A DNA stretch of 64,000 nucleotides. Source: an uncultured Acidobacteriota bacterium. GTDB lineage: Bacteria > Acidobacteriota > Thermoanaerobaculia > Gp7-AA8. Position numbers and translations under genes: made by a program. Within the stretch, counting starts at the first letter, position 1, and each line of letters opens with the position of its first letter. The stretch is taken from contig CAVWUH010000002.1 in the NCBI GenBank assembly GCA_963758195.1, forward strand, positions 4,301,560-4,365,559. Direction: 5' to 3'. Of the stretch, positions 10,325 through 63,928 are shown piece after piece. Under the pieces are notes generated by a model. It did not search any database. It had not been told where the DNA came from and worked only from the letters and a program-made list of their open reading frames with translations.

Positions 10325-12688
<2,364 letters not shown>

Positions 12689-27251: not shown

Positions 27252-27299
27252 CTGGTTGTGCTTTCCCTGGCTCTCCATTTGCTGCATTAGACTTCCCAT

Positions 27300-42423: not shown

Positions 42424-42456
42424 GGGGGGCGTACCGCACGCCCCCCTTTTTGTTTT
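42424..42456 (+). terminator. Strong intrinsic-terminator-like hairpin 5 nt upstream of the SD of the next gene
   Basis: ggggggcgt accgc acgcccccc tttttgtttt. TACAAT lies at 42391..42396, 28 nt upstream. Confidence 0.65.
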
Positions 42457-42470
42457 GGCGAGGAGGCACC

Positions 42471-43052
42471 ATGAAGCTGAAGAGTCTGGCCCTGACAGCG
42501 ATGTTCGCTTTGATCGCGCTGCCGGCGTGTACGAGCCGCGAGCATGCGACGATCACCGGTGGCTACGGCAACGCCGTAATCAGCGGTGAAGTGGTCATGC
42601 AGGGAACGGCCGACAGCAGCCCGGCTGGCATGGTCGTCTCGGTGCGCGGCACGGGCATGACGACGGTTCTCGGCGCGGATGGCAAGTTCGTCTTCGCCGA
42701 GGTGCCGGATGGAGCGGAACTGGTCTTCCGTCGTGCGCCGGATGGCATTGGTGCTTCGCTGCGGATGGAAAACGGTGAAAGTCATGTCGTCGTCGCGCTC
42801 GCGCAGAGCTCCGCGTCTCGCTCGACCTCCTCGAAACGTCGCGGCGTCGGGCGCGGCGGCGACACGATCGATGAATTCGAAGGACCGATCCGCAGCGTCA
42901 CCGCGGACTCACTCGTCGTCTTCACATCGAAGGGAGTGGAACCGACGATCGGCCTCACGGCGGAGACGATCATCCGCAAAGGCGATCAGGTCGTCACGGC
43001 GGCCGACCTCGTGGTCGGCGCCGTTCTCGTGACGATTCAGCGGGCGAGGTAG
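42471..43052 (+). CDS. Lipoprotein with a CarboxypepD_reg-like domain and a DUF5666-like C-terminus
   Basis: AGGAGG SD. MKLKSLALTAMFALIALPAC (lipobox). ISGEVVMQGT...VSVRGTGMTTVLGADGKFVFAEVPDG. FEGPIRSVTADSLVVF...IIRKGDQVVTAADLVVG. Confidence 0.6.
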   Translation: MKLKSLALTAMFALIALPACTSREHATITGGYGNAVISGEVVMQGTADSSPAGMVVSVRGTGMTTVLGADGKFVFAEVPDGAELVFRRAPDGIGASLRMENGESHVVVALAQSSASRSTSSKRRGVGRGGDTIDEFEGPIRSVTADSLVVFTSKGVEPTIGLTAETIIRKGDQVVTAADLVVGAVLVTIQRAR

Positions 43053-43131
43053 TCCATCGGACAAACAGAAACGGGCAGGCAACCGCCCGTGGGAAGTGGC
43101 ACGGTTCCCCCGAAACGTGCAGGGCGTGGAC

Positions 43132-43164
43132 GAGACCGGCGAGCAATCGCCGGTCTCTTTTTTT
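43132..43164 (+). terminator. Intrinsic terminator
   Basis: gagaccggcg agcaa tcgccggtctc ttttttt. Confidence 0.75.
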
Positions 43165-43375
43165 GTGTTCGCCGGCCGCGGGAGGGCGATCCTCCCTTCC
43201 ACCTGCTCTTCTCTTACATTGTTATTTTCAAGCGGCGCGGCTAAACTCTCCTGGATCAGAGAGTAAGTTAGGAGATGTCCCGGCTGTTATCATCTCCGTT
43301 CGTCTTGCGGTTCCGCCATTTTCGAAATGCGTGAGGAGAATCCTCGCGCTGAGCTTTTTACCGGGTGAAAGAAGG

Positions 43376-46300
43376 ATGCCGTCCATGAACGCGTCACGCC
43401 GCTTCTCGCTGTTGATTGTTGCTGCCGCTCTTATCTGCCCCCTGTTCGCTTCCGCAGCAACCTCAGAGGTTCGGGTCCTCATCGACGTCGACAACAACGT
43501 GGCCACCGGATGCGTCGTCGGTGGAATGACGGGTGTCGATCAGGTACTCGTCACGCAGGTCGCGGATAGCCCGACCGGCGCAAGCGTCACCCAAACGCAT
43601 CGCCTGGTCTGCTCGAGTGGCGTTCTCAGTGGCCCGACCGACATCGTGACCTCCGGCTGGCCGGTTGGTTGGCAGCCGACCAGCGGAATGATGCTGGTCG
43701 AGACCCGCATCCCGTTCTCGGCGCTCGGCACGAGCACCATGCCCAGCGAAATGCGCATCGGCTTCGACGGAACGCGCGGCTCGGCCGCGTTCTCCGCGCT
43801 GACAAAAGCGAATGGCTCACCGATTCTTCTTCCCGTCACCGTGAATCGTCGCCGCGCGGTCGGATTTCCCGCCGAGCCGCGGATGATCATTCTGGATGGC
43901 CTCGACCCCGACTGGGGCATGATCAACCCGCTGACCGAAGGAACCGCCGGCGGCGGTGCTTCGGCGATCAAGCTGATCAAAGCCTTCGGATTCCCCAACC
44001 CTCTCGATTCCTTCGTCTACTTCCGTTTCGATCTCAACCTCTCCGGTTCGAGCATCCTCGCCGTCGATGACAGCTACACGCGCGACCAGGGACAAGGCTT
44101 CACCCTGGCGGCGCCGGGCGTGCTCGCCAACGACCAGCCGAACACGTTGCCATTGACCGCGGCGCAGGTCAGCCAGCCGAATGACGGCTCGGTGACTCTG
44201 AACCCGGACGGCAGCTTCGTCTTCACGCCTTACCACCCGAACTCGCTCACGAGCGACTCGTTCCAGTACAAAGCGGTCGCCGGCTCGGAGCAATCGAACG
44301 TAGCCACGGTGAGAATCAAAGTCGCCCGAGTCTGCCCGAACATCATCGTGACCCGCCCCGTGGTCACGACGGCGACCGTCGGCACTCCCTTCTCGCAGAC
44401 CTTCACGCAGACCGGTGCGGCCGGCGGCGCGACGTTCACGACCTCTTCAACGCTTCCGGCCGGTCTCACTCTCTCGACGACCGGTGTGCTCTCCGGAACG
44501 CCGACGCAGTTCGGCACTTTCCCGATCGTCGTGACCGTGACCGACGGCAACGACTGTACGGGCCATAGCGCGCCGTACAACCTGGTCGTCAGCTGCCAGA
44601 CCATCACCGTCACCAACCCCGCGACCAACACTGGCGTCGCCAACGCCGCGTTCTCGCAGACCTTCACGCAGGTGGGTGCGATCGGCTCGGCGACATTCAC
44701 GACATCGTCGGCGTTGCCGGCCGGTCTGACGCTGGCAACGAACGGCACGCTGTCCGGCACGCCGACGCAGACCGGCACGTTCCCGATTACCGTGACCGTG
44801 ACGGACAGCAACGGCTGCACGGGCACGAGCTCATACACGCTCACCATCACTTGCCAGGGCATCACCGTCACCAATCCGGCGAACGCCAGCGGCACCGCGA
44901 ACGCCGCGTTCAGCGAAGTGTTCACGCAAGCCGCCGCGATCGGAACGGCGACGTTCACGACCGCGAGCACGCTGCCGGCGGGTCTCACGCTGGCGACGAA
45001 CGGCACGCTGTCCGGCACGCCGACGCAGACCGGATCGTTCCCGATCGTCGTCACGGTCACCGACTCGAACGGCTGCACGGGCACGAGCGCGACCTACACG
45101 CTGATCATTGCCTGCCAGACCATCAACGTCACCAACCCCGGCGCCACGACGGGAACGGTGAGCGCTCCGTTCAGCCAGACCTTCACCCAGACCGGCGCGA
45201 TCGGAACGGCGACGTTCACGACCGCGAGCACGCTGCCGGCGGGTCTCACGCTGGCGACGAACGGCACGCTGTCGGGCACGCCGACGCAGACGGGCTCGTT
45301 CCCGATCGTGGTCACTGTCACCGACTCGAACGGCTGCACGGGCACGGGCGCGACATACACGCTCGTCATCGGCTGCCAGACGATTACCGTCACGATTCCA
45401 GGCACGACGACCGGCACCGTCTCCACGCCGTTCAATCAACAGTTCACGCAGACGGGAGCGGTGGGCGGAGCGACCTTTACCACCGCCAGCACGTTGCCCG
45501 GCGGTTTGACGCTGGCAACCAACGGCACGCTGTCCGGCACGCCGACGCAGACCGGATCGTTCCCGATCGTCGTCACGGTCACCGACGGCAACGGCTGCAC
45601 CGGCACGAGCGCGACGTACACGCTCGTCATCGGCTGCCAGGTCATCACCGTCACGAACCCGGCGATCGCCACGGGACCGGCCGGCACGCCGTTCAGCCAG
45701 ACGTTCACGCAGACGGGCGCGTTCGGCTCGGCAACGTTCACCACGGCCAGCACGCTGCCGACCGGTCTCTCCCTCTCCACGGCCGGCGTTCTCTCCGGCA
45801 CGCCGAGCCAGGGCGGCACATTCCCGATCGTCGTCACGGTCACCGACGCGAACGGTTGCACGGGCACGAGCGCGACCTACAACCTCGTCATCACCTGCCC
45901 GGTCATCACCGTGACCAATCCGGTCAACGCGAATGGCACGGCGTCGAGCCCGTTCAGTGAGACGTTCACACAGACCGGTGCCGTCGGCGGAGCGACCTTC
46001 TCGATTGCCAGCGGCACGTTGCCGACGGGCCTCAGCCTGTCGGCCGCGGGTGTGCTCTCCGGCACGCCGACCCAGACCGGTTCGTTCCCGATCACCGTGA
46101 AGGTGACCGATGGCAACGGCTGCACCGGCACGGGACCGACGTACACCATCGTCATCGCTTGCCAGGTCATCACCGTCAACAATCCGGCCAACGCGAACGG
46201 TACGGCCTCGAGTCCGTTCAGCGAGACCTTCACGCACACCGGCGGCATCGGAACGACCACCTTCACCCTCGCGTCGGGAACGCTGCCGGCCGGCTTGACG

Positions 46301-49300
46301 CTGGCCACCAACGGCACGCTCTCGGGTACGCCGACGCAAACCGGTTCGTTCCCGATCACGGTCACGGCGACGGATTCGAACGGTTGCACCGGCACCGGCG
46401 CGACCTACACGATCATCATCGGTTGCCAGACGATCAACGTCTCAAACCCCGGCGTCACGACGGGTACCGTGAATGCCCCCTTCAGCCAGACCTTCACGCA
46501 GACAGGCGCCATCGGAACGGCGACGTTCACGACCGCCAGCACGCTGCCCGCGGGTCTGACGCTGGCGACGAATGGCACGCTTTCCGGCACGCCGACGCAG
46601 ACCGGCTCGTTCCCGATCGTCGTCACGGTCACGGATAGCAACGGCTGCACCGGCACGGGCTCGACGTACACACTCATCATCGGTTGTCAGACCATCACCG
46701 TCACCAAACCGGTGAACACGAGCGGCACGGTCTCGGCCGGGTTCAGCGAAACGTTCACGCAGACCGGAGCCTTCGGCACCGCGACCTTCACGATCGCCAG
46801 CGGTGTGTTGCCGACCGGACTGACCCTTGGAACCAACGGAACGCTCGCCGGCGTACCGACGCAAGCCGGTTCGTTCCCGATCACCGTGCTGGTGACGGAC
46901 AGCAACGGCTGCACCGGCACGAGCGCGACTTACAACCTCGTCATCGGCTGTCAGGTGATCACCGTCGGCAATCCGGCCACCACGAGCTCTCCGGCCGGAA
47001 CGCCTCTCTCCATCAACTTCACGCAGAGCGGCGCGATCGGCAGCGCGACCTTCACGACGGCCAGCACGCTGCCGACGGGTCTCTCCCTGGCGGCCAACGG
47101 CACGCTCAGCGGCACGCCGACGCAGGGCGGTTCGTTCCCGATCGTCGTCACCGTCACCGACAGCAACGGCTGCACGGGCACGAACCCGAGCTACACGTTG
47201 ACAATTACCTGCCCGGTCATCACGGTCACGAACCCCGTCGTCAACAGCGGCACGTCCGGCGTCGCGTTCAGCCAGACGTTCACGCAGACGGGCGGGCAGG
47301 GGACGATCACCTGGTCCGTCAGCGGCACACTGCCGACCGGCATCACGCTCAACCCGTCGTCGGGCGTCCTCTCCGGCACGACGACGCAGGCCGGCACCTT
47401 CCCGATCACGATCACGGCAACGGACCAGAATGGCTGCACCGGCACCGGCGCCACGTACAACCTGACGATCAACTGCCAGACCATCACCGTCACGAATCCG
47501 GGCGTCAACACCGGGACCGTCGACGCTGCCTTCAGCCAGACCTTCACCGTCACCGGCATCCTCGGCACGGTGACATGGAGCGAGACCGGCGCGCTGCCGG
47601 CCGGCATCACGCTCAACCCCTCGACGGGCGTCCTCTCCGGCACGCCGACGGTCACCGGCGCGTTCCCGATCACCGTCAAGGCGACCGACACGAACGGCTG
47701 CTTCGGCACGTCGAGCTACACGCTGACCATCAACTGCCAGACCATCACGGTCACCAGCCCGGTGACGAACACCGGCACGGTCAACGCGCCGTTCAGCCAG
47801 ACCTTCACGCAGACCGCGGCGCACGGCACGGCGACGTTTACGACTGCATCCACGCTGCCCTCGGGCATCACGCTGGCGACGAACGGAACGCTCTCGGGCA
47901 CGCCGACGCAAACCGGCTCGTTCCCGATCGTCGTCACCGTCACCGACAGCAACGGCTGCACGGGCACGGGCTCGACTTACACGCTGACGATCGGCTGTCA
48001 GACCATCACCGTCACGAAACCGGTCGTCACCACGGGCACGACCGGTGTCGCGTTCAGCCAGACGTTCACGCAGAGCGGCGCATTCGGCACGGCGACGTTC
48101 ACGACGGCGAGCACGTTGCCCACGGGCTTCACGCTGAGCGCGGCCGGTGTTCTGTCCGGCACCACGAATCAGCACGCGACCTTCCCGATCACCGTCACCG
48201 TCACGGACAGCAACGGCTGTACGGGCACGAGCACGACGTACAACCTCACGATCAATTGCCAGACGATCAGCGTGACGAACCCGGTCAACGCCAGCGGCAC
48301 CGTGAACGCCGCATTCAGCGAGCAGTTCACGCAGACCGGCGCGATCGGCGGCGCGACGTTCACTACCGCCAGCACGTTGCCGAATGGCATCACGCTCTCG
48401 GCCTCCGGTCTACTCGCCGGCACTCCCACGCAGTCCGGTTCGTTCCCGATCGTCGTCACCATCACTGACGGCAACGGCTGCACGGGCACGGGCTCGACGT
48501 ACACGCTGATCATCGGCTGCAACGTCGTCACGGTGACGAACCCGGTCAACAACCTCGGCACCGCCGGCAGCGCGTTCAGCGAGACCTTCACGCAGACGGG
48601 CGGCACGGGCACGATCACCTGGTCGGTGACCGGCACACTGCCCAGCGGCATCACGCTCAACACGTCGAGCGGAGTGCTCTCCGGCGTGACCTCGCAGGTC
48701 GGCACGTTCCCGATCACCGTCACCGCGACGGATCAAAACGGCTGCGCCGGCACGGGCACGACCTACAACCTGACGATCGGTTGCCAGACGATTTCGATCA
48801 CGAACCCCGGAACGACCAGCGTGCAGGCGGGTTCGCCGCTCACCGCCACCTTCACGGCGACCGGCATCCTCGGCACCGCGACCTGGACCGAGACCGGCAC
48901 GCTGCCGACCGGCATCACGCTCAATTCGTCGTCAGGCCTTCTCTCGGGCACGACGACGCAGCTCGGCTCGTTCCCGATCACGGTGAAGGTCACCGACACC
49001 AACGGTTGCTTCACGACCTCTTCGTACACGCTCACAGTCACCTGTCCGGTCATCACGGTCAGCCGCACCGGCGGGGGCTCGTTCCCGACCGGTACGTTCA
49101 ATACGGCGTACACCGGCCAGAGCGTTACCGCCACGGGCGGCGGCGGGAGCTACACCTTCGCGGTGACCTCCGGCGCGTTGCCGACCGGGTTGTCGCTCGC
49201 TCCGGGCGGCGCGATCAGCGGCACTCCGACGCTGACCGGCGTCTTCAACTTCACCGTCACCGCAACCGATACGGTAAGCCTCTGCACCGGCTCGCAGGCG

Positions 49301-52300
49301 TTCTCTATCTCCATCGCCCCGAAGGCGACCGACGATCTGACTCTGTATGACTCGACCAGCCACATCGTCGACAACACGCAGTTCGTGATCACTGGCGGCA
49401 CGACCACCAGCCCAACGACGCCGTTCGTCGGCTCGATCGCCAACATCCTCACGAACGACCTTCCGAGCGGCGGCGTCACGGCAACGGCCGGCACCTTCGC
49501 GACGACCGCGGGCGGCAGCGTTACCCTCGCCGCGGACGGCACCTTCATCTACACGCCGAAGGCCAATCCCGGCGCGGCGGTCACCACCAGCGACTCGTTC
49601 ACCTACACCGTCGTGAGCAATGCCGTCACCTCGGCTCCGGCCACGGTCAACCTCACGCTCGCCAATCGCGTCTGGTATGTGAAAAACAACGGCGCCGGCA
49701 CCAACGGCCAGTCGCAGTCTCCGTTCACCACGCTCGCCGCCGCGCAGGCAGCCTCGCTCGCCGGCGACATCATCTATGTCTACAACGGAGACGGCACCAC
49801 CACCGGCCATATCGCCGGCATTACGCTGAAGAACACGCAGCAGCTCATCGGTGAAGGCGTCGCGCTCGTCGTCAACACCGTCACACTCAAGGTCGCCGGC
49901 ACCAAGCCGCAGATCACCAACCTCACGGCCGCGAGCGATGCGGTCACATTGGCCGATGGCAATACGGTCAAGGGCTTGACCATCACCGGCGCCACGCGCG
50001 ACGGTATCTCTTCCGTCGTCGCGCACGCCGGCTTCACGGGTGACTCGCTGACGGTTCAGAACAACACCAACGTCGGCGTCAACCTGATCAGCATGACTGG
50101 CACGGTGACGATCACCAACTCCACGATCACGAGCGTCGGCAATCAGGCTTTGACGATCAACAACGGTACGGCGGCGGTTACCGTCGACAACACCAATACC
50201 ATCGACGGCGGAACAGGCACGGCCGTGAGCGTCATCAACCGGCCGGTCGCTGCGGGCGCCATCGCCATCGGTGCCAACCTCACCAACGGACGCATTCAGC
50301 TTCTCTCGAACCTCTCCGGGACGATCTCGTTCACCGGCACTCAGACGCTCTCCACCACAACCAACACCGCGGTCACGATGACCACGAACGCCGGTGCGAC
50401 GATCAATTTCAGCGGCACGCTCGGTATCACGACCTCGACAGGAACAGGGTTCATCGCCAGCGGTGGCGGAACGCTGAACGTCTCCGGCACCGCGAACATC
50501 ACATCCGGAGCGGCCGCGGCCGGCCTGAGCCTCAACGGCATCACCGTCGGCGGCACTGGCGTCGCCTTCACGAGCGTCAGCACCACCGGCGCCACGACCG
50601 GCATCAGCCTGACGAACATGACCGGCACGGTATCGGTCAACGGCGGCACGATCACCAACGGCACGACCGGCGTTTCGCTGCAGGGTGCCACGACGAGTCT
50701 CTCGCTGGCCGGTGTGACCATCACCGGTCCGGTCACCGGTATCACCAACACGACGAACTTCGGCACGTTGACGATCGGTGCGACCGTGAACGTCAGCGCC
50801 GCCACGGCACTCAACCTGACGACAGGAGCAATCAGCGGTACGTTCGCGGGCGTCACATCCACGGGCGGAACGAATGGCGTGAACCTCAACGCCGTCACAG
50901 GTTCGTGGGGCACGGCGGGCGGCTCCCTCAACGGCGCCAGCGGCTCGACATTCAACGTCACCGGCGGCAGCGGCGGCACGATCACCTGGGGCGCTGCAAT
51001 CGCTCAGGCCAATGCTGCGAATGTCGTGACCATTGCATCGAGCAACTCCAATACGATCAACTTCAACGCCAGCGTCACTTCGAGCGGCACGAGCACCGGC
51101 ATCTCGATCTCCGGCAGCTCGGGCACCTACAACTTCAACGGTTCGGGGAACAGCATCACCGGCAGCGGCGGCGGCGTCTCCATCGCCAACGAGTCGGGAT
51201 CGGTGACGTTCAGCTCCGGGACGAACATCAACACCACCAACACCGCCACGGCGTCGTTTAACGTCACGAACTCGACGGCGAGCATCACTTACAGCGGCAC
51301 GGTTACGCAGAACGCCAACGGCGGCAAGCTCCTGAACATCGCCACCTACGGCACCGGCACACTGACGATGAACGGTACGTCGCTCAGCGGTTCGGTCGCC
51401 GTCGGGGCCGCCGGAGTCATCTCCACGCTGAGCAACATTACCGGGACGGTGGTGATCAACAACCTCAGTCTCACCTCGAGCGACAACACCTTCAACAGCA
51501 CGCTCGTGGCGATCACCGGGGTCAACACCGGCGGCTCGATGACCTTCAATCACCTCACGCTCTCGGCCACCGGCAGCAATCACACCGGCAAGGGTCTGAC
51601 CGCCGTCGGCGGCGGAACGCTCACCATCACTGCGACGGGCGGCGCGAGCAGTATCGACGTCGGCAGTTCCGCGCTCGATCTCAACGGCCAGATCCTCGGA
51701 GCCTCGGCGATCGGTACTCTCAACTCCTTGGGTGTGGCCACCGTGAATGGTGTTCTCTTGACGAACGTCACCGGCGGCACGCTGACCATCGGCGGTGGAA
51801 CGATCACCGGCAACACCGCCGCGGCGTTCGCGGTCGTGGGCGGCTCGGTGAGCGTCACTGATTCAGGCAACATCAACCAGGCCACGGCCTCTCAGCCGCT
51901 CCTCAGCGTCACCGGCGGCCACTCGGGCACGCTGACGTTCAACACCGGCACGCTCAGCGCGACCAACGGAACCGGCCTCCTGTTCGACAACGCCGACGGC
52001 ACGTACAACTTCAACGGCACCACGACGCTGAACGGCGGCGACGCCGGCGTCGACATCCTCGCCGGCGCCGACGCGAGCAACGGGTCACAGGGCACGTTCA
52101 GCTTCAACGCGAATACCGCCGTGACCAACCCGACCGGCCGCCTCTTCGACATCGAGGGCAGCACGCCCACCTTCACCTACAGCGGCTCGTTCACCCGCTC
52201 GACCGCCGGCGCGGGCATCTTCGCCAACGGCAACAAGGGCGGCACCATCACCTTCGACGGCAACCCCGCCACCGAGACCAAGAGCCTCAGCACCACCACC

Positions 52301-53908: not shown

Positions 53909-53932
53909 TTTCCTACAGATGCCATTCACGAA

Positions 53933-53959
53933 AGGACGGCCCTCGGGCCGTCCTTTTTT
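53933..53959 (+). terminator. Intrinsic terminator
   Basis: aggacggccc tcg ggccgtcct tttttt, 25 nt after the stop codon. Confidence 0.75.
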
Positions 53960-54145
53960 ACGTGTAGCGGCTTGATATCTGTTGCGCTCCGCCGTAAGTG
54001 ACGCTAAATTGTCTGCATCTCAGAGAGAGTGAGTCTTACGTCCTGAACAGCGGTCCGCCTTGTGGGACGGACAGCTGGTTTTATTCGCAGTCATCGTCGG
54101 TCCAAGCAAAAATTGCGATTCGTCAGTTCCGCGGAGGGCTTCTGT

Positions 54146-57100
54146 ATGCGATCCCTGTCGGTCAGGCTGCTGCTTTCGATTTTGACCTTGTGCGTCACGC
54201 CTGCGGTTCTGGCGCATGACATCACCCTGAGCGGGACGCAATCGTTCGCGTCGCTCGATGGCTCGTCGAGCGATCACGACGGCGTCGTCAACGGCGTCTT
54301 CACCGTGAGCGACGGCAATCTCGTCGTGAGCGGCACCGTCAACTGCAACGACGACGGCGCCTCGAGCAACAGCGCATGCGCGATGTCGTTCGCCGTGAGC
54401 GGCAACATGACGCTCAATACCGGCGCCGCGCTCTACGCGGAGAACCGCACCGGCAACGGCGTCGGCGGAAACATCACGCTGACGGTCGGCGGCAACCTCG
54501 CGCTGAACGGGACCGCCATCGTATCGTCGTCCGCGAAGAGCTCGAGCAGCTCGACCGGCGGCGCGATCACGGCCAACGTCAGCGGCGCCGTGACGATGGC
54601 CTCGGGCGCGACGATCGATTCCGGCGCCGCCAACGCGCGCGGCGGAGCGATCACCATCAGCGGCGGGAACGTCATCAGCCTCGACGGCAACATCCTTTCC
54701 GGACCGAGCCGCACTATCCTGGCCACCCGCTTGACCGGCGACATCCTCAGCGGCGGCACCGGCAATCAGATCGGCGGCCAGATCACGATCGGCTCGAGCA
54801 CCTTCGTCGAGCCCGCGATCCTCATCGGCCCCAATGCCACCATCGCCTCGCAGGGCGAGAAGGACGGCGCGGGACCGGTCACGATCAACGGCTGCGGCAT
54901 CGAAGTGCGCGGCCTCGTCGGCGCGGTCTCCCGCAAAGACTCGCCGGCGATCGTCGTCATTCGTTCCGGCAAGAACCTGCTCGTCGACGGCCGCGACCTC
55001 GGCGGTGCCGGCACGCGCATGGGTCGCGTGCGCGCCGACGCGATGGCGGACGGCGCCACCGATGACCGCGTCGATCTCTTCGCCCGCGGCTCCGCGACCG
55101 TCCTCGGCCCATCCTCTGCGGGCGGGACGCTCTTCTCCGTCAGCTCGCTCCCCGGTCCGAAGAACAAGAAAGACGCCGGCGGAACGCTCCGCGTCGTCGC
55201 TCTGGAAGGCGGCGCGAGCGCCAGCGGCCGCGCATTCGTCGCCGGCGCCGACGGAAAGGGGACACGCGGCGGCACGATTTCGATCGCCGCGGCGGCCGAC
55301 GTCAACCTCGACAATGCCACGCTGGCGGCCCTCGGCGACTACACCAAACCGAAGAAGGATAGCGCCGGCGGGCACATCATCGCGCGCTCATACAACGGCA
55401 GCGTTTACTGGCGCAACGGCGTCGGCGACGTGCGTCCGGTCGGCTCGTCCTCCGGCGTCGATCCTGCCGACCAGGGCACGATCGTCCTCACCGCGTGCGG
55501 CACCGTCGACATCGCCGGCTCGAGCTACCCGACCACCGGCGTGGCCACGAGCATGTTCCCCGAGACACACACCGGCGTCTGCGCGCCTTCCGCTCCGACG
55601 CTTCCGGTCGGCGCGCCGCCGCTCGTCACGTGCAACACTCCGCCGGTCGCGAATGACGCGGCCGCGACGACGAACGAAGACACTACGGTCACCATCACGC
55701 TGAGTGGCACCGACGCCGACGGCGACTCGCTCACCTTCACGATCGTCTCCGGCCCGTCGCACGGATCTCTCGGCCCCATCGTACCGACCGGTTCGACGAG
55801 TGCCACCGTCAACTACACGCCGGCGTTCAACTACAACGGTCCCGACTCGTTCGTCTATCGCGCGAACGACGGCAACGGCGGCACTGACGACGCGACGGTC
55901 ACGATCGCCGTCGCTCCGGTCAACGACCCGCCGACGTTCCTGATCGGTCCGACCGACATCGTGCTCGAGGACTCGGGCCCGCGCACCTATGCGAACTGGG
56001 TCACCTCGATCTCGCCGGGACCGAGCGACGAGTCGGCGCAGACCGTGACGTTTACCGTCACCAACAACAACAACGCACTCTTCAGCGTACAGCCCTCCGT
56101 CGCTTCGAACGGAACGCTCACGTACACGCCCGCCGCGAACGCCTACGGCAGCGCGACGATCACCGTCGTCGCCCACGACAACGGTGGCACGGCGAACGGC
56201 GGCAACGACACCTCCGCGCCGCAGACCAGCAGCATCAACGTCACGCCGGTCAATGACGAGCCGTCATTCACGAGCGGCGGCAACGTGACCGTCAACGAAG
56301 ATTCCGGCGCCTACTCCGCGGCCTGGGCCACGGGCATTTCCGCCGGGCCGAACGAAGGTTCGCAGACCGTGGCCTTTGTCACGAGCAACGACAACAACGC
56401 GCTCTTCGCCGTTCAGCCGAGCGTCTCGCCGAGCGGCGTACTGACGTTCACGCCGGCAGCCGACGCCTTCGGCACCGCGACCGTCACGGTCTATCTGCAC
56501 CGACAACGGCGGCGTCGCCAACGGTGGTGACGACACTTCGCCGTCGCAGACGTTCATCCTCGCGGTCAACTCCGTGAACGATGCCCCGTCCTTCACCAGC
56601 GGCGGCAACGTCACGGTCAATGAAGACAGCGGCGCCTACTCCGCCGCCTGGGCCACCGGCATCAGCGCCGGTCCGGCGAACGAGTCCTCGCAGACCGTTT
56701 CCTTCGTGGTCTCGAACAGCAACAACGCGCTCTTCAGCGTGCAGCCGTCGGTCTCTTCCACCGGCGTGCTGAGCTTCACACCGAACGGCAACACCGCCGG
56801 CAGCGCGACGGTGACCGTCTATGCGCAGGACAACGGCGGCATCGCCAACGGCGGCGTCGACGTCTCCGCCTCGCAGACCTTCACGATCACCGTCAGCGAA
56901 GTCAACGACGCTCCGTGCTTTACGCCGGGCGCCAATCAGTCGTCGCTCGAAGATGCCGGACCGCAGACGGTTCCGAACTGGGCTACCAGCATCAGCGCCG
57001 GCCCGGCCAACGAGTCGTCGCAGACGCTGACGTTCGTCGTCTCGAATGACAACAACACGCTCTTCTCCGCGCAGCCGTCGATCTCGCCGACGGGCACGCT

Positions 57101-60100
57101 GACCTACACCGCTGCTCCGAACGCCAATGGCTCGGCGACGGTCACGGTCTACCTGCAGGACGACGGTGGGACGGCGAACGGTGGCAGTGACACGTCCACT
57201 ACGTATACGTTCACGATCACGATTGTCGCCGTCAACGACGCGCCGTCCTTCACGGGCGGTGGCGACGTCACGGTGCTCGAAGACTCGGGTTCGTACTCCG
57301 CGAACTGGGCCACGGGCATCAGCGCCGGTCCGGCCGACGAGTCGGGCCAGACGCTGACGTTCAACGTCGTCTCGAACAGCAATCCATCGCTCTTCGCCAG
57401 CGGTCCGTCGATCTCGGCGGGCGGAGTGTTGAGCTTCGCACCGGTCGCGAATGCGTTCGGCAGCGCTACGATCACGATCAATCTTCAGGACAATGGCGGC
57501 ACCGCCGGCGGCGGCGCCGACACGTCCGCGAGCTATGTCTTCACCATCAACGTCACGCCGGTCAACGACGCTCCGTCGTTCACGCCGGGCGGCGACGTGA
57601 CCGTCAACGAAGACGGCGGTCCGTACTCCGCGTCATGGGCCACGGGCATCTCCGCCGGGCCGGCGAACGAGTCTGGCCAGTCGGTGACGTTCCTCGTCGT
57701 CGAACAACAACAACGCACTCTTCAGCGTGCAGCCTTCGATCTCGCCGGCGGGCATCCTGACCTTCACCTCCGCGCCGAACGCATTCGGCTCCGCGATCGT
57801 CACCGTCTCGCTGCAAGACAACGGTGGCGTGGCCAATGGCGGCGTCAATACTTCGGCGTCGGTCCAGTTCACGATCACGGTCAACGCCGTGAACGATGCG
57901 CCGACCGCGGTCACGGATACGTGGGCCACGCTCGGCAACACCGAGCTGCGCGTCGATCTCGCCGGCGGTCTCACGCCGAAGATCGCCGACACCACGCCTT
58001 CGGGCAACGGCGTGCGCGACAACGACAGCGATCCCGAAGGCGATCCGAGCGTCGTGACCGGCATCGTCGGCTGCTCCGATTCGACCGCACCATTCGACTG
58101 CACCCTCGGCGACGGTTCGAAGCTGTCGATGCAAGCCAACGGCTCCTTCACCTACACCCCGGGTCCGGGCAACACCAGCGGATCGTTCCAGTACACGGTC
58201 ACCGACATTCCGGCGTTTGGTGCACCCGCGAGCGCCACCGGCACCGTGAACATCACCATTGTCGACATGATCTGGTACGTGAACGGCTCGGCCGCCGCGG
58301 GCGGCAACGGCACGTCGATCGCGCCGTTCAATTCATTCGCATCGCTCAACGGTCCGGGAGGATCGGGCGACGTCGATGCAGCAGGAAGCACGATCTTCGT
58401 CCATGACTCGAACGTCATTGGCGGAATCGGTCTCGAAACGAATCAGAAGCTGTGGGGCGAGGGCGTCGGCCTGAGCACCACGGCCAATCTCAACGGCAAC
58501 GGCTCGCCCCAGGTTCTCGTCGCGCCGGGTGTCCGTGCTCGCATCTTCGGCGGTGCAGGTGACGCGGTCTCCGTCGTCGGTGTGACCGGTGTCGATGTCG
58601 CCGGTCTCGATCTGAACAGCACGGGATCGAACGGCGTCGATGTCACCAGCAATCCCTTCGGACCGGCAACGGGAGTTTCGATTCACGAAAACGTGGTGAC
58701 CGGCGCGGCGCTCGAAGGAATCGACGTCAATGCCGGCAGCACCTCGGGCACGACGGTTCTGGTCAACAACACCTCGATCACCTCAGCCGGCAATGGTTTC
58801 GACGTCAGTTCCATCGGTCCGGCAGTCATTTCCTACACGAACGGCACGATTCTCTCCGGTGGCGGAAGCGGCATTCGGATGTCGGGAAGTGGTAACCTGA
58901 CGGTGTCTGGTCTAAGTAACGTGACAGTTGACGGCAGTACCGCCTCGGACGGCGTCAATATTGCGAGCGCGACATTCGACGCGGTCGCGGGCGGAGCGTT
59001 CAATACGGTCAACGGTGGCGCGATCAACGTCGGTACGAGTGGCAACCCCGTGGGCGGCGCCGCATTCGTGCTCTCCTCCGTCAGCGGAGATCTTGCAATC
59101 ACGTCGCTCAACGCATTCGCCGGCAGCGGCCAGGGTGTGTCCGTCGACGGTTCCGGTCTCTTCACCGGGTCCGCCGGTATGCGTATCGCGGTCGGGGGCG
59201 GCTCGATCAGCGCTCCGTCGGCGCGCGGTCTCAACGTTTCGAACGCGACGATCGCAAGCACCGGCATCACTTTCACACGCATCGTCTCGGCTGGCGCGCT
59301 CAACGGAATCGTGTTGAACAACACCGGCACGTCGGGCGGCCTCACCGTCAGCGGTACGGGCGCCGCGAGCTCGGGCGGGTCGGTGACGAACGCCACGGGC
59401 GACGCGATCCTGCTCTCTTCGACGAAGAGCGTGACGCTGACGGACTTCGACGTGACCAACAGTGCGCAGAGCCATATCGACGCCACGAACGTCGACGGTC
59501 TCACGTTGACGCGCGTCCACACGGATCTCTCCACGGATCACGGCATCCTCGGCTCGACGGTCCGCAACCTCGTCATCACCGGCGGCCTGTACGATCGCGG
59601 CGGCGCCGGCTCGGCGGGGTCGGGCGTGCACGGCGTGTTCATCACCAATCTCCTCGGCAACTCCAGTGTCAGCGGCGCAACGTTCCGCCGCTCGAACACC
59701 ATTCAGTTCCGCGTCCTCAACACGACGGCCACCGCGGCGGCGCCGGGTGCGCCGGACGTGCTGACCATCAGCGGCTCGACGTTCGACACGCACACCAGTC
59801 CCTTCGCGGGCGATCACCTCTCCGTGGGCTCGACCGGCGGCGGAAACCTCCGCCTGGCCACGAACGGCGGCGCCGGCATCAACACCTTCACCGGCGGTGG
59901 CAACGGCATCCAGGGCACGTCGGATTCGGGCGCCACTCTCGATCTCTCGCTCACCGGCGTTCTCGCGGCCGCGAACACGACCGGCATCAACATGGCCGCC
60001 ACCACGGCCGGCAACCTGACGTTCGCCCTGTTCGACAACGCCACCGCTAACGGCACGGGCATCAACAACAGCGCCACGATCGGGATCAACGTCGTCAGCC

Positions 60101-60615
60101 TCACCGGCGGCGTGATGAGCGGGACGATCTCGAACAACAGCGTCGCCAACGCGGGGTCCACGGGCATCCAGACCATCCTCGAAGGAAACGGCTCCATCGT
60201 CGTCGCCGTGACGAACAACTCCGTGACCGGGGTGTTCAACACGTTCGGCATCCGCGGCCAGTCGCGTCTCGGCACCGGCCTGCTCTCGGCGAACATCACC
60301 GGCAACACCGTCACCGGCACGAACCCATCGGCGATCACCGGCATCAGCATCGAGTCGGGCGCCAGCGGCTCCGGCCACGCCAATACCGTCTGCCTCAATC
60401 TCGCGGGGAACACCAGTGCGCTTTCCGCGGGTGAAGGCTATCGCCTGCGCCAGCGCGCCGGCACCACGTTCAACCTGCAGAACTTCGCGGGAAGCGGTAC
60501 CTCAGCGACCGACGTCTCGAACTGGATCACGGTTACCAAGGGGAACATCGGCACGACTAACGTAATCATTGCCTCGTCGTTCAGTGCGGCGGCTGGTGCA
60601 TGCCAGGCGCCGTAG
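54146..60615 (+). CDS. Second giant secreted protein (~2150 aa; two apparent frameshifts near 56495 and 57695): beta-helix N-terminal region, cadherin-like/tandem-95-type VNDAPxF repeats, beta-helix region, C-terminal module paralogous to the first giant protein
   Basis: GGAGGG SD. MRSLSVRLLLSILTLCVTPAVLA|HD is the signal. About 7 units of the form VND(A/P/E)P(S/T/C)F..G.......EDSG........WAT.ISAGP.NES.Q...F.V...NN.LF...P.....G.L.FTP.....G.A...V...DNGG.ANGG.D.S. The frames join as VTVYLH|DNGGVANGG and VTFLVV|NNNNALFSVQPS. Confidence 0.8.
55918..57890 (+). repeat. About 7 tandem ~306-nt coding repeats (VNDAPxF cadherin-like units)
   Basis: The motif set above recurs with a period of about 102 codons. 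Confidence 0.75.
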
Positions 60616-60713
60616 CGACGCGAGAGAAGTCGACGGACCTGTAGTTTGAAAAACGCGACATCTCGTCCGGACCGGAGTGGGTCCGGACAGGATGCGCAAG
60701 GAGGCGAAGAGAA

Positions 60714-61232
60714 ATGGCTGAACCTTTCCTTTCAGAGATCCGCATCATGAGTTTCGTATTCGCGCCCAAAGGCTGGGCGTTGGCCAACGGCCAGCTATTG
60801 CCGATCAACCAGAACCAGGCGCTGTTCTCCCTGCTCGGCACCACCTTCGGCGGCGACGGGCGCGTGAACTTCGCGTTGCCCGATATCCGCGGGCGCGCGC
60901 CGATTCACGTCGGCTCGGGACACACGCTCGGCGAGCGCGGCGGCGAGCAGGCCCACACGCTCTCCATCGCCGAGATCCCGACGCACACCCATGTGCTCAG
61001 TGGCAACTCGGCAAACGCGTCGGCCGTCGATCCGACCAGCAACGTCGTCGCGAAAGGCGCCGCCACGAACGGCAACCCGATCAACGCGTATGGCGCCGCA
61101 TCGCAGTTGTCGGCCATGTCCGCCGCGTCCGTGACCAACACCGGTGGCAGCCAGGCTCACCTCAACATGCAGCCCTTTCTGATCCTTTCGTTCTGTATCG
61201 CACTGCAGGGGATCTTCCCCAGCGCGACCTAG
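60714..61232 (+). CDS. Phage tail collar domain (MdpB/COG4675-like) protein, paralog 1
   Basis: MAEPFLSEIRIMSFVFAPKGWALANGQLLPINQNQALFSLLGTTFGGDGRVNFALPDIRGRAPIHVG...GGSQAHLNMQPFLILSFCIALQGIFPS. AAGGAGG SD. Confidence 0.9.
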   Translation: MAEPFLSEIRIMSFVFAPKGWALANGQLLPINQNQALFSLLGTTFGGDGRVNFALPDIRGRAPIHVGSGHTLGERGGEQAHTLSIAEIPTHTHVLSGNSANASAVDPTSNVVAKGAATNGNPINAYGAASQLSAMSAASVTNTGGSQAHLNMQPFLILSFCIALQGIFPSAT

Positions 61233-61244
61233 GAGATTGACGCA

Positions 61245-61748
61245 ATGGCACAACCTTACGTTGGTGAGATCCGGATGTTCGCGGGGAACTTCGCGCCCGC
61301 GGGCTGGATGTTTTGCGAAGGACAGCTTCTGCCGATCTCTGAGAACGAGACGCTCTTTCAGTTGATCGGCACCACCTACGGCGGCGACGGCCAATCCACC
61401 TTCGCCCTCCCTGACCTCCGCGGACGCATTCCCCTTCATCAGGGGAACGGGTTCATTCTCGCCGAGACCGGCGGCGCCGAGGAGATCACGCTCACGGTCA
61501 ACCAGATCCCCGCTCACTCGCATCCTCTGCTGGCAAGCCTCGCACCGGCCATCGATCCGAACCCGGCCAACAACGTCTCCGCGACCACGACCCAGATGGA
61601 AATCTACTTCGCGGACGTCCCCGATACGACGATGGCGCCGCAGAGCATCGGTAGTGTCGGCGGAAGCCAGCCCCATACGAACTTCCAGCCCTATCTCTGC
61701 GTGGATTTCATCATCTCGCTGTTCGGTATCTTCCCCTCTCCGACATAG
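61245..61748 (+). CDS. Phage tail collar domain protein, paralog 2
   Basis: MAQPYVGEIRMFAGNFAPAGWMFCEGQLLPISENETLFQLIGTTYGGDGQSTFALPDLRGRIPLHQG...GGSQPHTNFQPYLCVDFIISLFGIFPS. Confidence 0.9.
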   Translation: MAQPYVGEIRMFAGNFAPAGWMFCEGQLLPISENETLFQLIGTTYGGDGQSTFALPDLRGRIPLHQGNGFILAETGGAEEITLTVNQIPAHSHPLLASLAPAIDPNPANNVSATTTQMEIYFADVPDTTMAPQSIGSVGGSQPHTNFQPYLCVDFIISLFGIFPSPT

Positions 61749-61801
61749 GAGACGGTCGGTCCCCAGCGCTTTTGAAATCAGACGAGTAACAGGAGAAGAC
61801 T

Positions 61802-62323
61802 ATGGCCGATCCGTTCGTTGCAGAAATTCGAATCTTCCCATTCAACTTTGCTCCCAAGGGATGGGCTTGGTGCGACGGTCAGTTGCTGCCCCTCTCGCAA
61901 AACACCGCCCTCTTTTCGCTGCTCGGCACCACCTACGGCGGCGACGGCAAATCCAACTTCGCTCTTCCCGACCTGCAGGGCCGCGCGCCGATGCATCCGG
62001 GCCAGGGCCCAGGGCTTTCGCTGCATGATCTCGGCGAAACGGGTGGTTCCGAGACGGTGACGCTGCTCGAGAGCGAGATCCCGTCGCACTCGCATGGCCT
62101 GAAAGCCTACAAGAGCGATCCCTCGGACCGCTTCACGCCGACCGGCGCCCTGTTCGGCCGCTCGAACAACGGCAACTTCTATGGCACCGCCGCCAACCTC
62201 GTGATGCTGAACGGAAATGCGCTCGCTCCCGCGGGCGGCGACCAACCCCACAACAACCTGCAGCCTTACCTCACGTTTTACTTCTGCATTGCCTTACAAG
62301 GGGTCTTCCCGCCTCGGACTTGA
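61802..62323 (+). CDS. Phage tail collar domain protein, paralog 3
   Basis: MADPFVAEIRIFPFNFAPKGWAWCDGQLLPLSQNTALFSLLGTTYGGDGKSNFALPDLQGRAPMHPG...GGDQPHNNLQPYLTFYFCIALQGVFP. Confidence 0.9.
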   Translation: MADPFVAEIRIFPFNFAPKGWAWCDGQLLPLSQNTALFSLLGTTYGGDGKSNFALPDLQGRAPMHPGQGPGLSLHDLGETGGSETVTLLESEIPSHSHGLKAYKSDPSDRFTPTGALFGRSNNGNFYGTAANLVMLNGNALAPAGGDQPHNNLQPYLTFYFCIALQGVFPPRT

Positions 62324-62374
62324 GGATTTGGGATTAGCATGCAGGCCGAGTGAGAGAGAGATCAAGGAGAGCGT

Positions 62375-63103
62375 ATGAACACCAACGAGCACAAGATCGG
62401 GCGTCGCGAGTTTCTGCTCGTGTCATCGACCTGTGCGCTGGCGGCTGCGGCTGTGGGGCCAAAGCTGTTCGGCGGAGAGGCGGTTTCATCTCCGAAGCGG
62501 CTCGCGGTCGGGTTCGCGTCGCTCGATGACAGTGCCCCTTTGATGGCCGCGTCCGGCATTCCTGCCGGCGACGGCGCATTCATCGGACACGGCGCGCGCA
62601 TTACGGTTTCGGGCGCGAGCGGAGCGTCCGCCGAGCCGCGCGAGCGGCGGGGCGTGGAGTTGCTCACGCACTATTCGTATTTCGAAGGTGCGGAGCGTCG
62701 CGATGCGCCTTTCCGCGCCTGGGGCTGCAGCCGCAAGACGGGCTGCCAGGGCAACGCCGTCAGTTTCAACGTGCCCGTGGACGTGGAGCAGCGCATTCGT
62801 TTCACCGTCGGCGTGGAAGCCGGTGCGGTGAAGTCGGGCGGACCGACGACGCGTCGCATCACCGTCGACGCGGCCACGGAATCGGAATCGCTTCCGGTGG
62901 TTCTGTCGTTGCTCAGCGACCCTGATTCGCTCAAGCTCGTTCGCGGTTTCTATGTCATCGTGCCGTTGTTCGAGAACGACGGCCAGCCGCGCTGGTCGGA
63001 CTGGCATCTCGCTCGCGTCGAAGGACGCATGTCCCTCGTCAACGGGAACGGTGACGTCGCGCCGTTCGAACATTTCGTGCTGCGCGTCGATTACGCATCG
63101 TGA
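62375..63103 (+). CDS. Hypothetical protein with a twin-arginine (Tat) signal
   Basis: MNTNEHKIGRREFLLVSSTCALAAAAVGP (RREFL Tat motif plus h-region). AAGGAGAG SD. No family recognised. Confidence 0.6.
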   Translation: MNTNEHKIGRREFLLVSSTCALAAAAVGPKLFGGEAVSSPKRLAVGFASLDDSAPLMAASGIPAGDGAFIGHGARITVSGASGASAEPRERRGVELLTHYSYFEGAERRDAPFRAWGCSRKTGCQGNAVSFNVPVDVEQRIRFTVGVEAGAVKSGGPTTRRITVDAATESESLPVVLSLLSDPDSLKLVRGFYVIVPLFENDGQPRWSDWHLARVEGRMSLVNGNGDVAPFEHFVLRVDYAS

Positions 63104-63603
63104 ATTCGGTTCCCTCGGGTGATCGCGCCGCTGCCGGCGCGGTCACCCTTCGTCCCGCCACCGACGCCGATTACGCCTTCATGCGCGAGCTCTACGGCGA
63201 CACGCGCGCCGAGGAGATGCTGCACTTCCCCTTCGACGACGAGAGGAAGAAGGCTTTTCTCGATCAGCAGTTCGCCGCTCAGTTCGAGCACTACGGCGTT
63301 CACTACCCGACGTGCGAGCGCAACATCATCGAAAAAGACGGTCGTCCGATCGGCCGTCTCTGGATCGACGAATGGCGCGATCAGATCCGTCTCGTCGACA
63401 TCGCCCTGATGTCCGAGTGGCGAGCGTCGGGTATCGGCACGGACCTGCTGCGCGGGGTGCTCGCACGCGGCGCCGCGTCTGGCAAGCCCGTGACCATCCA
63501 CGTCGAAGGATTCAACCCCGCGCTCCACCTCTACCAGAGACTCGGATTCGAGCACGTCGACACGAATGGCGTGTACTACCTGATGCGCTGGTCGCCGGTC
63601 TAG
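63100..63603 (+). CDS. GNAT family N-acetyltransferase
   Basis: GTGA overlap with the upstream stop. IRLVDIALMSEWRASGIGTDLLRGVL...LHLYQRLGFEHV is the acetyl-CoA binding motif A region. Confidence 0.8.
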   Translation: MNSVPSGDRAAAGAVTLRPATDADYAFMRELYGDTRAEEMLHFPFDDERKKAFLDQQFAAQFEHYGVHYPTCERNIIEKDGRPIGRLWIDEWRDQIRLVDIALMSEWRASGIGTDLLRGVLARGAASGKPVTIHVEGFNPALHLYQRLGFEHVDTNGVYYLMRWSPV

Positions 63604-63628
63604 CGAAGGGCATCAGCGCGCGATCGCG

Positions 63629-63928
63629 CTACGTGAAGACCGCTTCGTAGAGATAGACGTCCGGCTCTTTTCCCACCGGGACCAGGAAGATCTCCATCGG
63701 CTCCGCGAACGTTTCGTGTTGGACGCGATAAGTTTTCTGCTCGAGATAGATCGAGGGCGGCCCGACGAAGAAGAGGGAAAACGGAGTTCGCTTCACGCGC
63801 GCGGCCTCGCTTTCCATCACCCGTGCCGCTTTCTCGAGACGCATCTCTACCTTGTGGCCCGGGGTGTGGACCCAGAAACTGCTGCCGACGAGCGGTTCGA
63901 ACGTTTCAATGGTGACCTGATCGAGCAT
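63629..63928 (-). CDS. Small conserved-looking hypothetical protein (99 aa), convergent
   Basis: MLDQVTIETFEPLVGSSFWVHTPGHKVEMRLEKAARV...FSLFFVGPPSIYLEQKTYRVQHETFAEPMEIFLVPVG. Family not firmly recognised. Confidence 0.45.
   Translation of the reverse strand: MLDQVTIETFEPLVGSSFWVHTPGHKVEMRLEKAARVMESEAARVKRTPFSLFFVGPPSIYLEQKTYRVQHETFAEPMEIFLVPVGKEPDVYLYEAVFT

Follow-up and report, generated by a model that had tools for sequence, protein, structure and literature searches.

Collar domains have been described in phage, virophage and cellular proteins. The receptor-binding tips of phage T4 gp12 and gp37 are homotrimers in which the collar ends a long shaft within one chain that is part of the virion. 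In the virophage DSLV2 three consecutive Collar proteins are reported to form a 1:1:1 heterotrimer that binds lipopolysaccharide (LPS; PMC12724248); the genes adjoin capsid genes and the fiber is anchored on the capsid. Among cellular proteins, RhiB encoded by rhiABC of Rhizobium possesses a Collar domain (COG4675), and MrpB of Microcystis was reported to be highly similar to RhiB. A connection with nodulation has been drawn for the Rhi proteins. In Microcystis, the extracellular glycoprotein MrpC has been implicated in contact between cells, and its level, like that of MrpA, changes in microcystin-lacking mutants. COG4675 proteins have been detected in soil metaproteomes, and positive selection has been published for Solibacter paralogues (PMC3174227). 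The present study concerns a stretch of 64,000 nucleotides (the window) from an uncultured Acidobacteriota bacterium of the Thermoanaerobaculia (GenBank GCA_963758195.1, contig CAVWUH010000002.1, positions 4,301,560 to 4,365,559), in which three tandem Collar genes lie among genes for two giant repetitive proteins, a protein with a twin-arginine translocation (Tat) signal, a GNAT N-acetyltransferase and a DUF6916 protein. This block is a local copy of a widespread cassette whose component families are already known. The searchable literature yielded no account of these genes as one cassette or of what the cassette does, and no literature on DUF6916 was found.

The cassette shares with the T4 tips homology over the collar domain, the HxH metal-site motif and a conserved scaffold with a variable distal part. 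Unlike the T4 proteins, it specifies three separate tip-only proteins of ~170 amino acids (aa) in cellular genomes, accompanied by GNAT and DUF6916; the identity of the Collar proteins to phage homologues is ≤39%. Like the DSLV2 tripartite tail, it comprises three consecutive, co-oriented Collar-domain genes conserved as a set, but the virophage has no GNAT, DUF6916, Tat protein or giant adhesin. The feature in common with RhiB and MrpB is a Collar-domain protein in a cellular genome; in contrast, within rhiABC the domain is recognizable in RhiB alone, not in RhiA or RhiC, and no GNAT or DUF6916 partner has been described. A working analogy, for which no homology is claimed, is provided by gp38 of T2-type phages, a small, separately encoded tip with hypervariable segments between conserved motifs that sets the binding specificity of the fiber, although gp38 is a single protein that acts in the virion. 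The giants resemble giant repetitive adhesins (He_PIG, Big_9, cadherin-like) in their size, in having a signal peptide and Ig-like repeats in tandem, and in a putative beta-helix-like region. They differ in that no signal of type I or type V secretion systems (T1SS, T5SS), of PEP-CTERM type or, in the window, of the type IX secretion system (T9SS) was recognized; instead, giants immediately upstream of Collar triplets have a rare conserved C-terminal tail that ends in C-P-x-P.

A conserved gene cassette in about ten phyla

On the + strand between 43376 and 63603 the block comprises, in order, giant 1, giant 2, Collar paralogues A-B-C, Tat protein X and the GNAT, followed by the convergent DUF6916 gene:

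43376..53908, + strand: giant protein 1, 3510 aa; a single open reading frame (ORF) with Pfam He_PIG and Big_9
53931..53960, + strand: intrinsic terminator 3′ of giant 1; stem-loop and U-run, from folding
54146..60615, + strand: giant protein 2; three ORFs in three frames, with Big_9, Cadherin_4 and Cadherin_5
60655..60697, + strand: hairpin without a U-run in the gap between giant 2 and Collar A, from folding
60714..61232, + strand: Collar paralogue A, 172 aa; Pfam Collar E 4e-25, 88 bits
61245..61748, + strand: Collar paralogue B, 167 aa; Pfam Collar E 8e-30, 103 bits
61802..62323, + strand: Collar paralogue C, 173 aa; Pfam Collar E 1e-27, 96 bits; Gp10_C E 4e-5
62375..63103, + strand: Tat-signal protein X, 242 aa; conserved twin-arginine motif, no Pfam family
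63100..63603, + strand: GNAT N-acetyltransferase, 167 aa; Pfam Acetyltransf_1, _7 and _3; GTG start
63629..63928, − strand: DUF6916 protein, 99 aa; PF21880, 92.7 bits

A one-genome-per-species scan with an 11-sequence Collar alignment returned at least 600 matches, the 80 best of which are orthologues of paralogue B. These 80 loci span about ten phyla (Chloroflexota, Alpha-, Beta-, Gamma- and Deltaproteobacteria, Bacteroidota, Verrucomicrobiota, Actinomycetota, Acidobacteriota, Eremiobacterota) with GC contents of 31-73%, and were searched with local hidden Markov models (HMMs) within 3.5 kb for GNAT and ORFs of ≥700 aa and within 4.5 kb for DUF6916. At least three tandem Collar ORFs were present in 78 loci, a GNAT in 71, DUF6916 in 69, and GNAT and DUF6916 together in 68. 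An ORF of ≥700 aa was detected in 70 of the loci and one of ≥2000 aa in 43, often cut by the locus edge. Following all-against-all clustering of neighboring ORFs, the giants of 60 loci grouped in one cluster; no other recurrent family, no transporter and no regulator emerged over the 80 loci. The GNAT, which the first-pass annotation had taken to be accessory, is instead core because an orthologous GNAT is present in those 71 loci. Similarly, the convergent 99-aa gene described there does exist; it encodes DUF6916, also a core partner.

A triplet together with GNAT and a large surface protein was encountered again in Alphaproteobacteria, Deinococcota, Bacillota, Bacteroidota, Chloroflexota, Actinomycetota, Verrucomicrobiota and further groups. 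The annotated contexts among plasmid records retrieved by tblastn were as follows:

Aminobacter: giant (~4170 aa), three Collar genes, 494-aa protein, GNAT, convergent 91-aa DUF6916 homologue
Rhizobium bangladeshense: He_PIG protein, three Collar genes, GNAT, convergent 97-aa gene
Pontibrevibacter: divergent 2858-aa protein; three Collar genes, GNAT, 91-aa gene
Azospirillum: three Collar genes, GNAT, 99-aa gene
Deinococcus: 899-aa lipoprotein with part of the C-terminal module of the giants, three Collar genes, Tat-signal binding protein, GNAT
Paenibacillus: divergent Ig-like protein; GNAT, three Collar genes
Spirosoma: three Collar genes, formyltransferase, 1487-aa protein

Named homologues of the block proteins occur in Thermoanaerobaculia and other Acidobacteriota genomes. 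In Thermoanaerobaculia-like contigs with Tat proteins 91%, 74% and 65% identical to that in the window, the order giant, three Collar genes, Tat protein, GNAT is kept, so that the synteny test set in the first-pass annotation favors a functional module, and the DUF6916 gene is convergent and slightly further on. In the relatives with the 74% and 65% identical Tat proteins each giant is followed by its own triplet, and giant and triplet are duplicated as a unit in loci L004, L005-7 and L016. A tblastn search of plasmids produced 71 records, most with three matches per record. The cassette is present on the alphaproteobacterial megaplasmid pSR1 of Aminobacter sp. SR38 (L008, 11470-15393), where Collar B, GNAT and DUF6916 are 78%, 44% and 39% identical, respectively, to the proteins of the window. 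Genes of the SapC family are located 3′ of the cassette in L008 and in approximately six Mesorhizobium-type loci.

The Collar triplet is a fixed set of three paralogues

The three tandem tail-collar genes of the first-pass annotation, spaced 12 and 53 nt apart and each preceded by its own AGGAG-type Shine-Dalgarno sequence, were recovered with scores above the curated Pfam Collar (PF07484) cut-off of 24 bits. The proteins form three orthogroups which occur in the order A-B-C in 69 of the 80 loci (65 single and four double cassettes), with one of each type per cassette. The N-termini are paralogue-specific and nearly invariant, reading MAEPFL in A, MAQPYVGE in B and MADPFVAE in C, and the proteins start at the collar with no upstream coding room for a shaft or signal peptide. 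Mean identity to the window across the loci is 67% for Collar A and 72% for Collar C, with a range of 67-72% for A, B and C, and orthologues of Collar B at 55-84% identity were found in many phyla. By comparison, mean identities in the same loci are 43% for GNAT and 34% for DUF6916. The high Collar identity over loci that differ from 31 to 73% in GC thus denotes strong constraint and not recent transfer.

Conservation is distributed unevenly along the Collar proteins. Residues 1-95 and 141-170 are 80-95% conserved, and these conserved flanks enclose a hypervariable segment of ~45 residues (~96-140) in which conservation is 20-50%. Both histidines of the HxH motif are invariant in 24 sequences from eight loci and the motif is conserved in all three orthogroups; a later histidine and asparagine (...H.N..) also are invariant. 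As judged by these sequence patterns, HxH is predicted to be the metal-coordinating motif of T4 gp12/gp37 type. Collar B matched the long tail fiber (8kec) and the T4 gp12 short tail fiber in PDB sequence searches, and the PDB and PHROGs matches of the Collar proteins were to tail-fiber tips only. In phages the homologous sequence is part of a larger tail protein, and each phage has one or two such proteins. In L004 and L005, which possess two triplets each, the C copies are 97-99% identical, the A copies 81-83% and the B copies 84-89%, which suggests gene conversion or unequal constraint among the paralogues.

A hairpin in the gap between giant 2 and Collar A (60655-60697; ΔG −32 kcal/mol, z −6.6) lies directly 5′ of the AAGGAGG Shine-Dalgarno sequence of Collar A. 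Through an effect on processing, stability or attenuation, this hairpin could allow the triplet to be expressed independently of the giant gene.

The two giant proteins of the window possess a common C-terminal module

Giant 1 was confirmed as a single ORF of 3510 aa (3507 aa if started at the better-spaced ATG at 43385) with a signal-peptide-like N-terminus (MNASRRFSLLIVAAALICPLFASA) and its own terminator, as the first-pass annotation had it. From the N- to the C-terminus the protein consists of the signal peptide, an N-terminal domain, Big_9, ~19 He_PIG Ig-like repeats (19 stretches in Pfam, E 8e-149), a Thr/Gly/Asn-rich, putatively beta-helix-like region and a conserved C-terminal module ending ...GGCPTPP. 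The alternative that giant 1 is a Tat substrate was rejected on account of its length of 3510 aa and the poor quality of SRRFSLL as a motif. The terminator has an 11-bp GC-rich stem, AAAGGACGGCC-cucg-GGCCGUCCUUU, followed by U's (ΔG −25 kcal/mol, z −5.3); it was missed by a consensus terminator scan and confirmed by reading and folding the sequence.

Giant 2 has a signal peptide (MRSLSVRLLLSILTLCVTPAVLA), Cadherin-like and Big_9 repeats, and a C-terminal module ending ...AGACQAP. The second gene had been described as one ORF of ~2150 aa. The length stands but the single ORF does not, as the coding sequence is distributed over three frames (54062/54146-56530, 56574-58406 and 57727-60615), being broken by a single extra C at ~56498 and another at ~57698, each within an otherwise regular repeat. 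The Logan contig L001, 99.9% identical over 7.8 kb, lacks both extra C bases, and their removal yields an uninterrupted ORF of ~2155 aa. Intact orthologues of 2140-2369 aa are present in L002, L004 and L005. Two further genes in the window also are frameshifted. In pnp (10329-12455, + strand) the reading continues in frame 0 to ~10560, in frame 2 to ~11490 and then again in frame 0; these two frameshifts in a normally intact housekeeping gene suggest indel errors in the assembly. In fdhA (27291-30282, + strand) there are several breaks, of which the TGA at 27831-27833 (...NQARI-U-HSSTVPG...) is the expected selenocysteine codon and the others are frame changes. Because pnp and fdhA also are frameshifted, the breaks in giant 2 more likely, if not provenly, reflect sequencing or assembly error than pseudogenization.

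As proposed in the first-pass annotation, the giants have a common C-terminal module: residues ~1703-2156 of giant 2 and 3038-3509 of giant 1 are 44% identical over 478 aa (E 6e-86), and the module in the Aminobacter giant is 37% identical (E 9e-36). A profile search with the module found no related PDB sequence. The profile searches that had been suggested recovered the He_PIG, Collar and Cadherin-like families, but PF13229 Beta_helix matched the module at 22.4 bits (E 1e-4, two of 15 members), below the curated cut-off of 25.9 bits. Giants upstream of triplets in Proteobacteria, Acidobacteriota, Actinomycetota, Chloroflexota and Deinococcus have a common tail, ...LPGY.G..D.AAV..FI..NN...GG..C P.P-COOH. 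When 1.84 billion proteins were searched with the tail profile, no more than 72 representative clusters matched, in almost every case at the very C-terminal end. This family was delineated with local HMMs and a full HMMER scan; a word-indexed search gave 16 fragmentary matches and was swamped by low-complexity candidates. In a second layout, the giant is downstream of the triplet and the conserved part is the N-terminal ~300 residues including Big_9. The partner giant in Flavobacterium possesses a C-terminal T9SS sorting domain (Por_Secre_tail), and the partners are therefore genuinely surface proteins. Neither giant of the window bears a repeats-in-toxin (RTX)/T1SS signal, autotransporter barrel, Por_Secre_tail or PEP motif with transmembrane helix in Pfam or NCBIfam.

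Both giants of the window (53886-53905 and 60595-60612) possess a lone cysteine two to four residues from the C-terminus and no transmembrane helix. The same lone cysteine is evident in L016, L018, L020, L024-L026, L030, L044, L048, L068, L070, L078, L087 and L094, with tails that read …C-P-T-P, …C-S-L-P or …C-Q-A-P. To our knowledge this ending matches no sorting signal. A second conserved cysteine ~80 residues upstream (CLN motif) possibly forms a disulfide with the terminal one.

Tat protein X occupies a recurrent slot

Protein X has the N-terminus GRREFLLVSSTCALAAAAVG with the twin-arginine motif GRREFLL. The stop codon overlaps the start of the GNAT gene as GTGA, as had been noted, and residues R10, R11 and F13 are invariant in 53 homologues. 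X is a predicted Tat substrate, based on the twin-arginine motif and hydrophobic region conserved in the homologues. The 240 homologues constitute a family specific to the Thermoanaerobaculia-type cassette. In the AlphaFold2 (AF2) model of X (predicted local distance difference test [pLDDT] score 75) residues 1-40 are disordered and the mature part is an all-beta sandwich. A PDB sequence search with X found nothing.

In 50 of the 80 loci surveyed, the start of an ORF with a twin-arginine signal lies no more than 3 kb from the triplet. Such ORFs were called by a regular expression, a few of whose matches are false positives. There are 56 of them in 588 kb near the triplets but 21 in the 759 kb that make up the outer flanks, and they are thus enriched 3.4-fold (binomial p 2e-7). 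The proteins in this slot belong to at least six unrelated families. The largest, in ~22 loci, is a second DUF6916 copy with a Tat signal, and others include a periplasmic-binding-protein type and X; HMM-HMM comparison of X with DUF6916 disclosed no relationship. The slot for a Tat-exported protein thus recurs, and in this lineage it is filled by X. The enrichment, which includes DUF6916 paralogues, implies that part of the system works outside the cytoplasm.

GNAT and DUF6916 are core partners

The GNAT matches Acetyltransf_1 (PF00583) with 39 bits against a curated cut-off of 20.7 bits. Orthologous GNATs adjoin Collar triplets in Aminobacter (44% identity), Deinococcus and Paenibacillus. The score against the RimI equivalog TIGR01575 is 28.8 bits, which does not reach the threshold of 86.4, and the PDB matches to N-terminal acetyltransferases are weak (E ≥ 7e-4). 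N-terminal acetylation of the Collar proteins is therefore proposed only tentatively.

The curated cut-off for DUF6916 (PF21880) is 27 bits. The protein of the window has no signal peptide, and its AF2 model is a small beta-sandwich (pLDDT 87). A PDB sequence search with DUF6916 found nothing. In many cassettes a DUF6916 gene that specifies no signal peptide is accompanied by a second copy with a canonical twin-arginine signal (L035, L038, L042, L047, L049, L053, L062, L074, L075, L077, L080 and L091); in L047 Pfam confirmed TAT_signal and DUF6916 in one protein. A Tat export signal on a small beta-sandwich without an obvious cofactor is unusual.

Proposed role of the cassette and alternatives

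The favored reading, for which belief and doubt are evenly balanced, is that the cassette is a surface adhesion or recognition device in which the Collar proteins form a heterotrimeric knob that works with giant surface proteins. A, B and C would fold in the cytoplasm into a 1:1:1 knob similar to the receptor-binding tips of T4 gp12 and gp37, in which the three HxH motifs would coordinate a metal ion and the three hypervariable segments would make up the distal face. The GNAT and DUF6916 may act as maturation or assembly factors, one option being acetylation of the invariant Ala/Ser N-termini of the Collar proteins. The knob and the giant secreted protein would together constitute a ligand-recognizing surface element that binds surface polysaccharide or another cell. 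Gene content, homology, conservation pattern and synteny are observed, whereas the heterotrimer, its ligand binding, any physical contact between knob and giant, and what GNAT and DUF6916 do are inferred. The surface adhesion module of the first-pass annotation is upheld by synteny as a functional module, but a fiber-plus-tip complex requires an export route for Collar proteins that lack signal peptides. The receptor-binding or lectin-like role envisaged for the Collar proteins fits the homology with the T4 gp12 tip, the hypervariable head and the LPS-binding heterotrimer of the virophage (PMC12724248). The circumstantial literature on RhiB and MrpB/MrpC likewise agrees with the favored reading.

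Several observations weigh against this reading. Foremost, none of ~250 Collar proteins has a signal peptide, and the ORFs begin at the conserved M-A/S-E/Q/D-P-F/Y. As the giants have Sec signals and the Collar proteins do not, an extracellular complex requires an export route. The giants are of at least two types, conserved C-terminally when upstream of the triplet and N-terminally when downstream, and therefore there is no single docking domain; moreover, ~10 of the 80 loci have no large ORF nearby. The survey took, from at least 600 matches, those 80 loci that most resemble a single paralogue, and its fractions describe this subfamily and not all Collar genes. Finally, fold searches gave no functional clue for X (weak C2-domain-like matches only, TM-score ~0.3) and no significant match for DUF6916 (best E 0.6 in the PDB and 0.015 among viral models).

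The strongest competing explanation, a serious rival although fairly unlikely, is that the Collar trimer, GNAT and DUF6916 act in the cytoplasm as, for example, a ligand-sensing, modifying or regulatory device that controls how the neighboring giant is produced or modified, or have an unrelated role, with only the giant and the Tat protein being exported. The GNAT and the main DUF6916 copy, like the Collar proteins, have no signal peptide in any phylum, the cassette includes no dedicated transporter, and the extreme conservation of the scaffold would suit a conserved intracellular partner. However, a hypervariable distal segment on a phage receptor-binding fold typically goes with recognition outside the cell, as does positive selection of the kind published for Solibacter paralogues (PMC3174227), and twin-arginine proteins, DUF6916 paralogues among them, are significantly enriched in the cassette.

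A more ambitious version of the surface reading, which is speculative and considered unlikely, views the cassette as a cross-phylum recognition machine: the trimer would be matured by the GNAT and the cytoplasmic DUF6916, be exported by hitch-hiking on the Tat pathway, cap the terminal module of the giant and confer strain-specific recognition of polysaccharide or kin. Hitch-hiker export through Tat is exemplified by the small and large subunits of hydrogenase and by DmsAB. By analogy, the cassette encodes a predicted metal-containing folded oligomer without a signal peptide beside a small twin-arginine protein. Hitch-hiking would solve the export of the knob, and fits both a metal-containing folded oligomer and the enriched Tat partners. 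Speculatively, the carrier would be X in the window and Tat-DUF6916 or another family in other lineages. In contrast to the established examples, export by this route is inferred for the cassette, and ~30 of the 80 loci have no Tat-signal gene.

Antagonism or defense is a very unlikely function. The knob would then be a bacteriocin-like or anti-phage element, such as a decoy that poisons the assembly of phage fibers, with GNAT or DUF6916 providing immunity or modification. GNATs do act as immunity or toxin proteins in some known systems, the Collar fold is derived from phage receptor-binding proteins and has a hypervariable segment, and many copies of the cassette reside on megaplasmids. These points are countered by the absence of toxin, lysis or nuclease domains and of any PADLOC match among the seven proteins scanned, by an orthologous, moderately conserved GNAT family that is not polymorphic, and by a giant adhesin-like protein as the consistent neighbor. 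The immunity role that had been entertained for the GNAT and Tat protein likewise gained no support, as no toxin domain was found.

A chance neighborhood, in which accessory genes for giants, Collar triplet, Tat protein, GNAT and DUF6916 have nothing to do with one another, is highly improbable: more than one type of giant exists and some loci have none, but this explanation is contradicted by the 80-locus survey, in which the same five or six families come together in about ten phyla over the full span of GC with overlapping or tightly spaced genes. A prophage or tailocin remnant with surviving tail-fiber genes, as the annotators' name "tail fiber protein" and the matches to PHROGs tail families might imply, is effectively refuted because neither the window nor the 4-10 kb read past its end contains genes for capsid, terminase, sheath, tube, baseplate, integrase or lysis, and by phage homologues of ≤39% identity present once or twice per phage against 55-84% among bacterial cassettes across phyla.

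Genomic context of the block

The GC content of the window is 62-67%. Outside the block are ordinary chromosomal genes, including those for an RNase T-type exonuclease, truB, pnp, phosphoglucomutase and formate dehydrogenase with fdhD, as well as a TPR protein, a matrixin, an HTH-cupin regulator and a GGDEF-EAL protein. The last of these, a GAF-PAS-GGDEF-EAL protein encoded just upstream of the block (39016-41712, − strand), is a cyclic di-GMP turnover enzyme; enzymes of this kind are frequent regulators of adhesins. Also upstream is a 200-aa ORF (42450-43052, + strand) with a lipoprotein-like signal (…ALIALPAC), no family match and an apparent terminator of its own at ~43128-43166.

Pfam searches of ~50 ORFs throughout the window, together with PHROGs searches of the small proteins, revealed no phage structural, secretion-system or defense families, in line with the first-pass annotation, which had recognized no phage-structural, T1SS, T5SS, T6SS (type VI), T9SS or PEP-CTERM components. 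PADLOC gave no match for seven proteins (the three Collar proteins, X, GNAT, DUF6916 and the 200-aa upstream ORF). Rfam and tRNA scans of the window found nothing, and a permissive Rfam scan of the giant 1 leader found no riboswitch. The region past the end of the window was read from a near-identical contig and from the relative with the 91% identical Tat protein. Over 4-10 kb it contains genes for an IRK K+ channel, a PIN toxin pair, PSCyt2/PSD1, DUF1501 and FHA, and no phage or secretion genes; the earlier view that the block is neither a prophage nor the cargo of a recognized secretion system thus extends beyond the window. In the Thermoanaerobaculia relatives L001-L007, an IRK/Ion_trans_2 K+ channel gene always adjoins DUF6916, followed by PSCyt2/PSD1 and DUF1501. 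Two lineages show the insertion of a toxin-antitoxin pair (PIN or AbiEii) nearby.

Significance

Bacteria of soil and water possess Collar genes (COG4675, "MdpB", "tail fiber protein") in abundance, and one Collar protein, RhiB, is connected with the long-known rhiABC phenotypes. The analysis converts an odd locus into a defined, testable system consisting of a fixed A-B-C triplet, almost always one GNAT family and DUF6916, usually a giant and often a Tat-exported protein. Cultured, genetically tractable carriers include Mesorhizobium, Ensifer/Sinorhizobium, Azospirillum, Flavobacterium, Nocardioides and Deinococcus ficus. Should the knob prove to confer specificity on giant adhesins, the cassette would represent bacterial domestication of phage receptor-binding tips for surface recognition, which would account for the hypervariable head segment.

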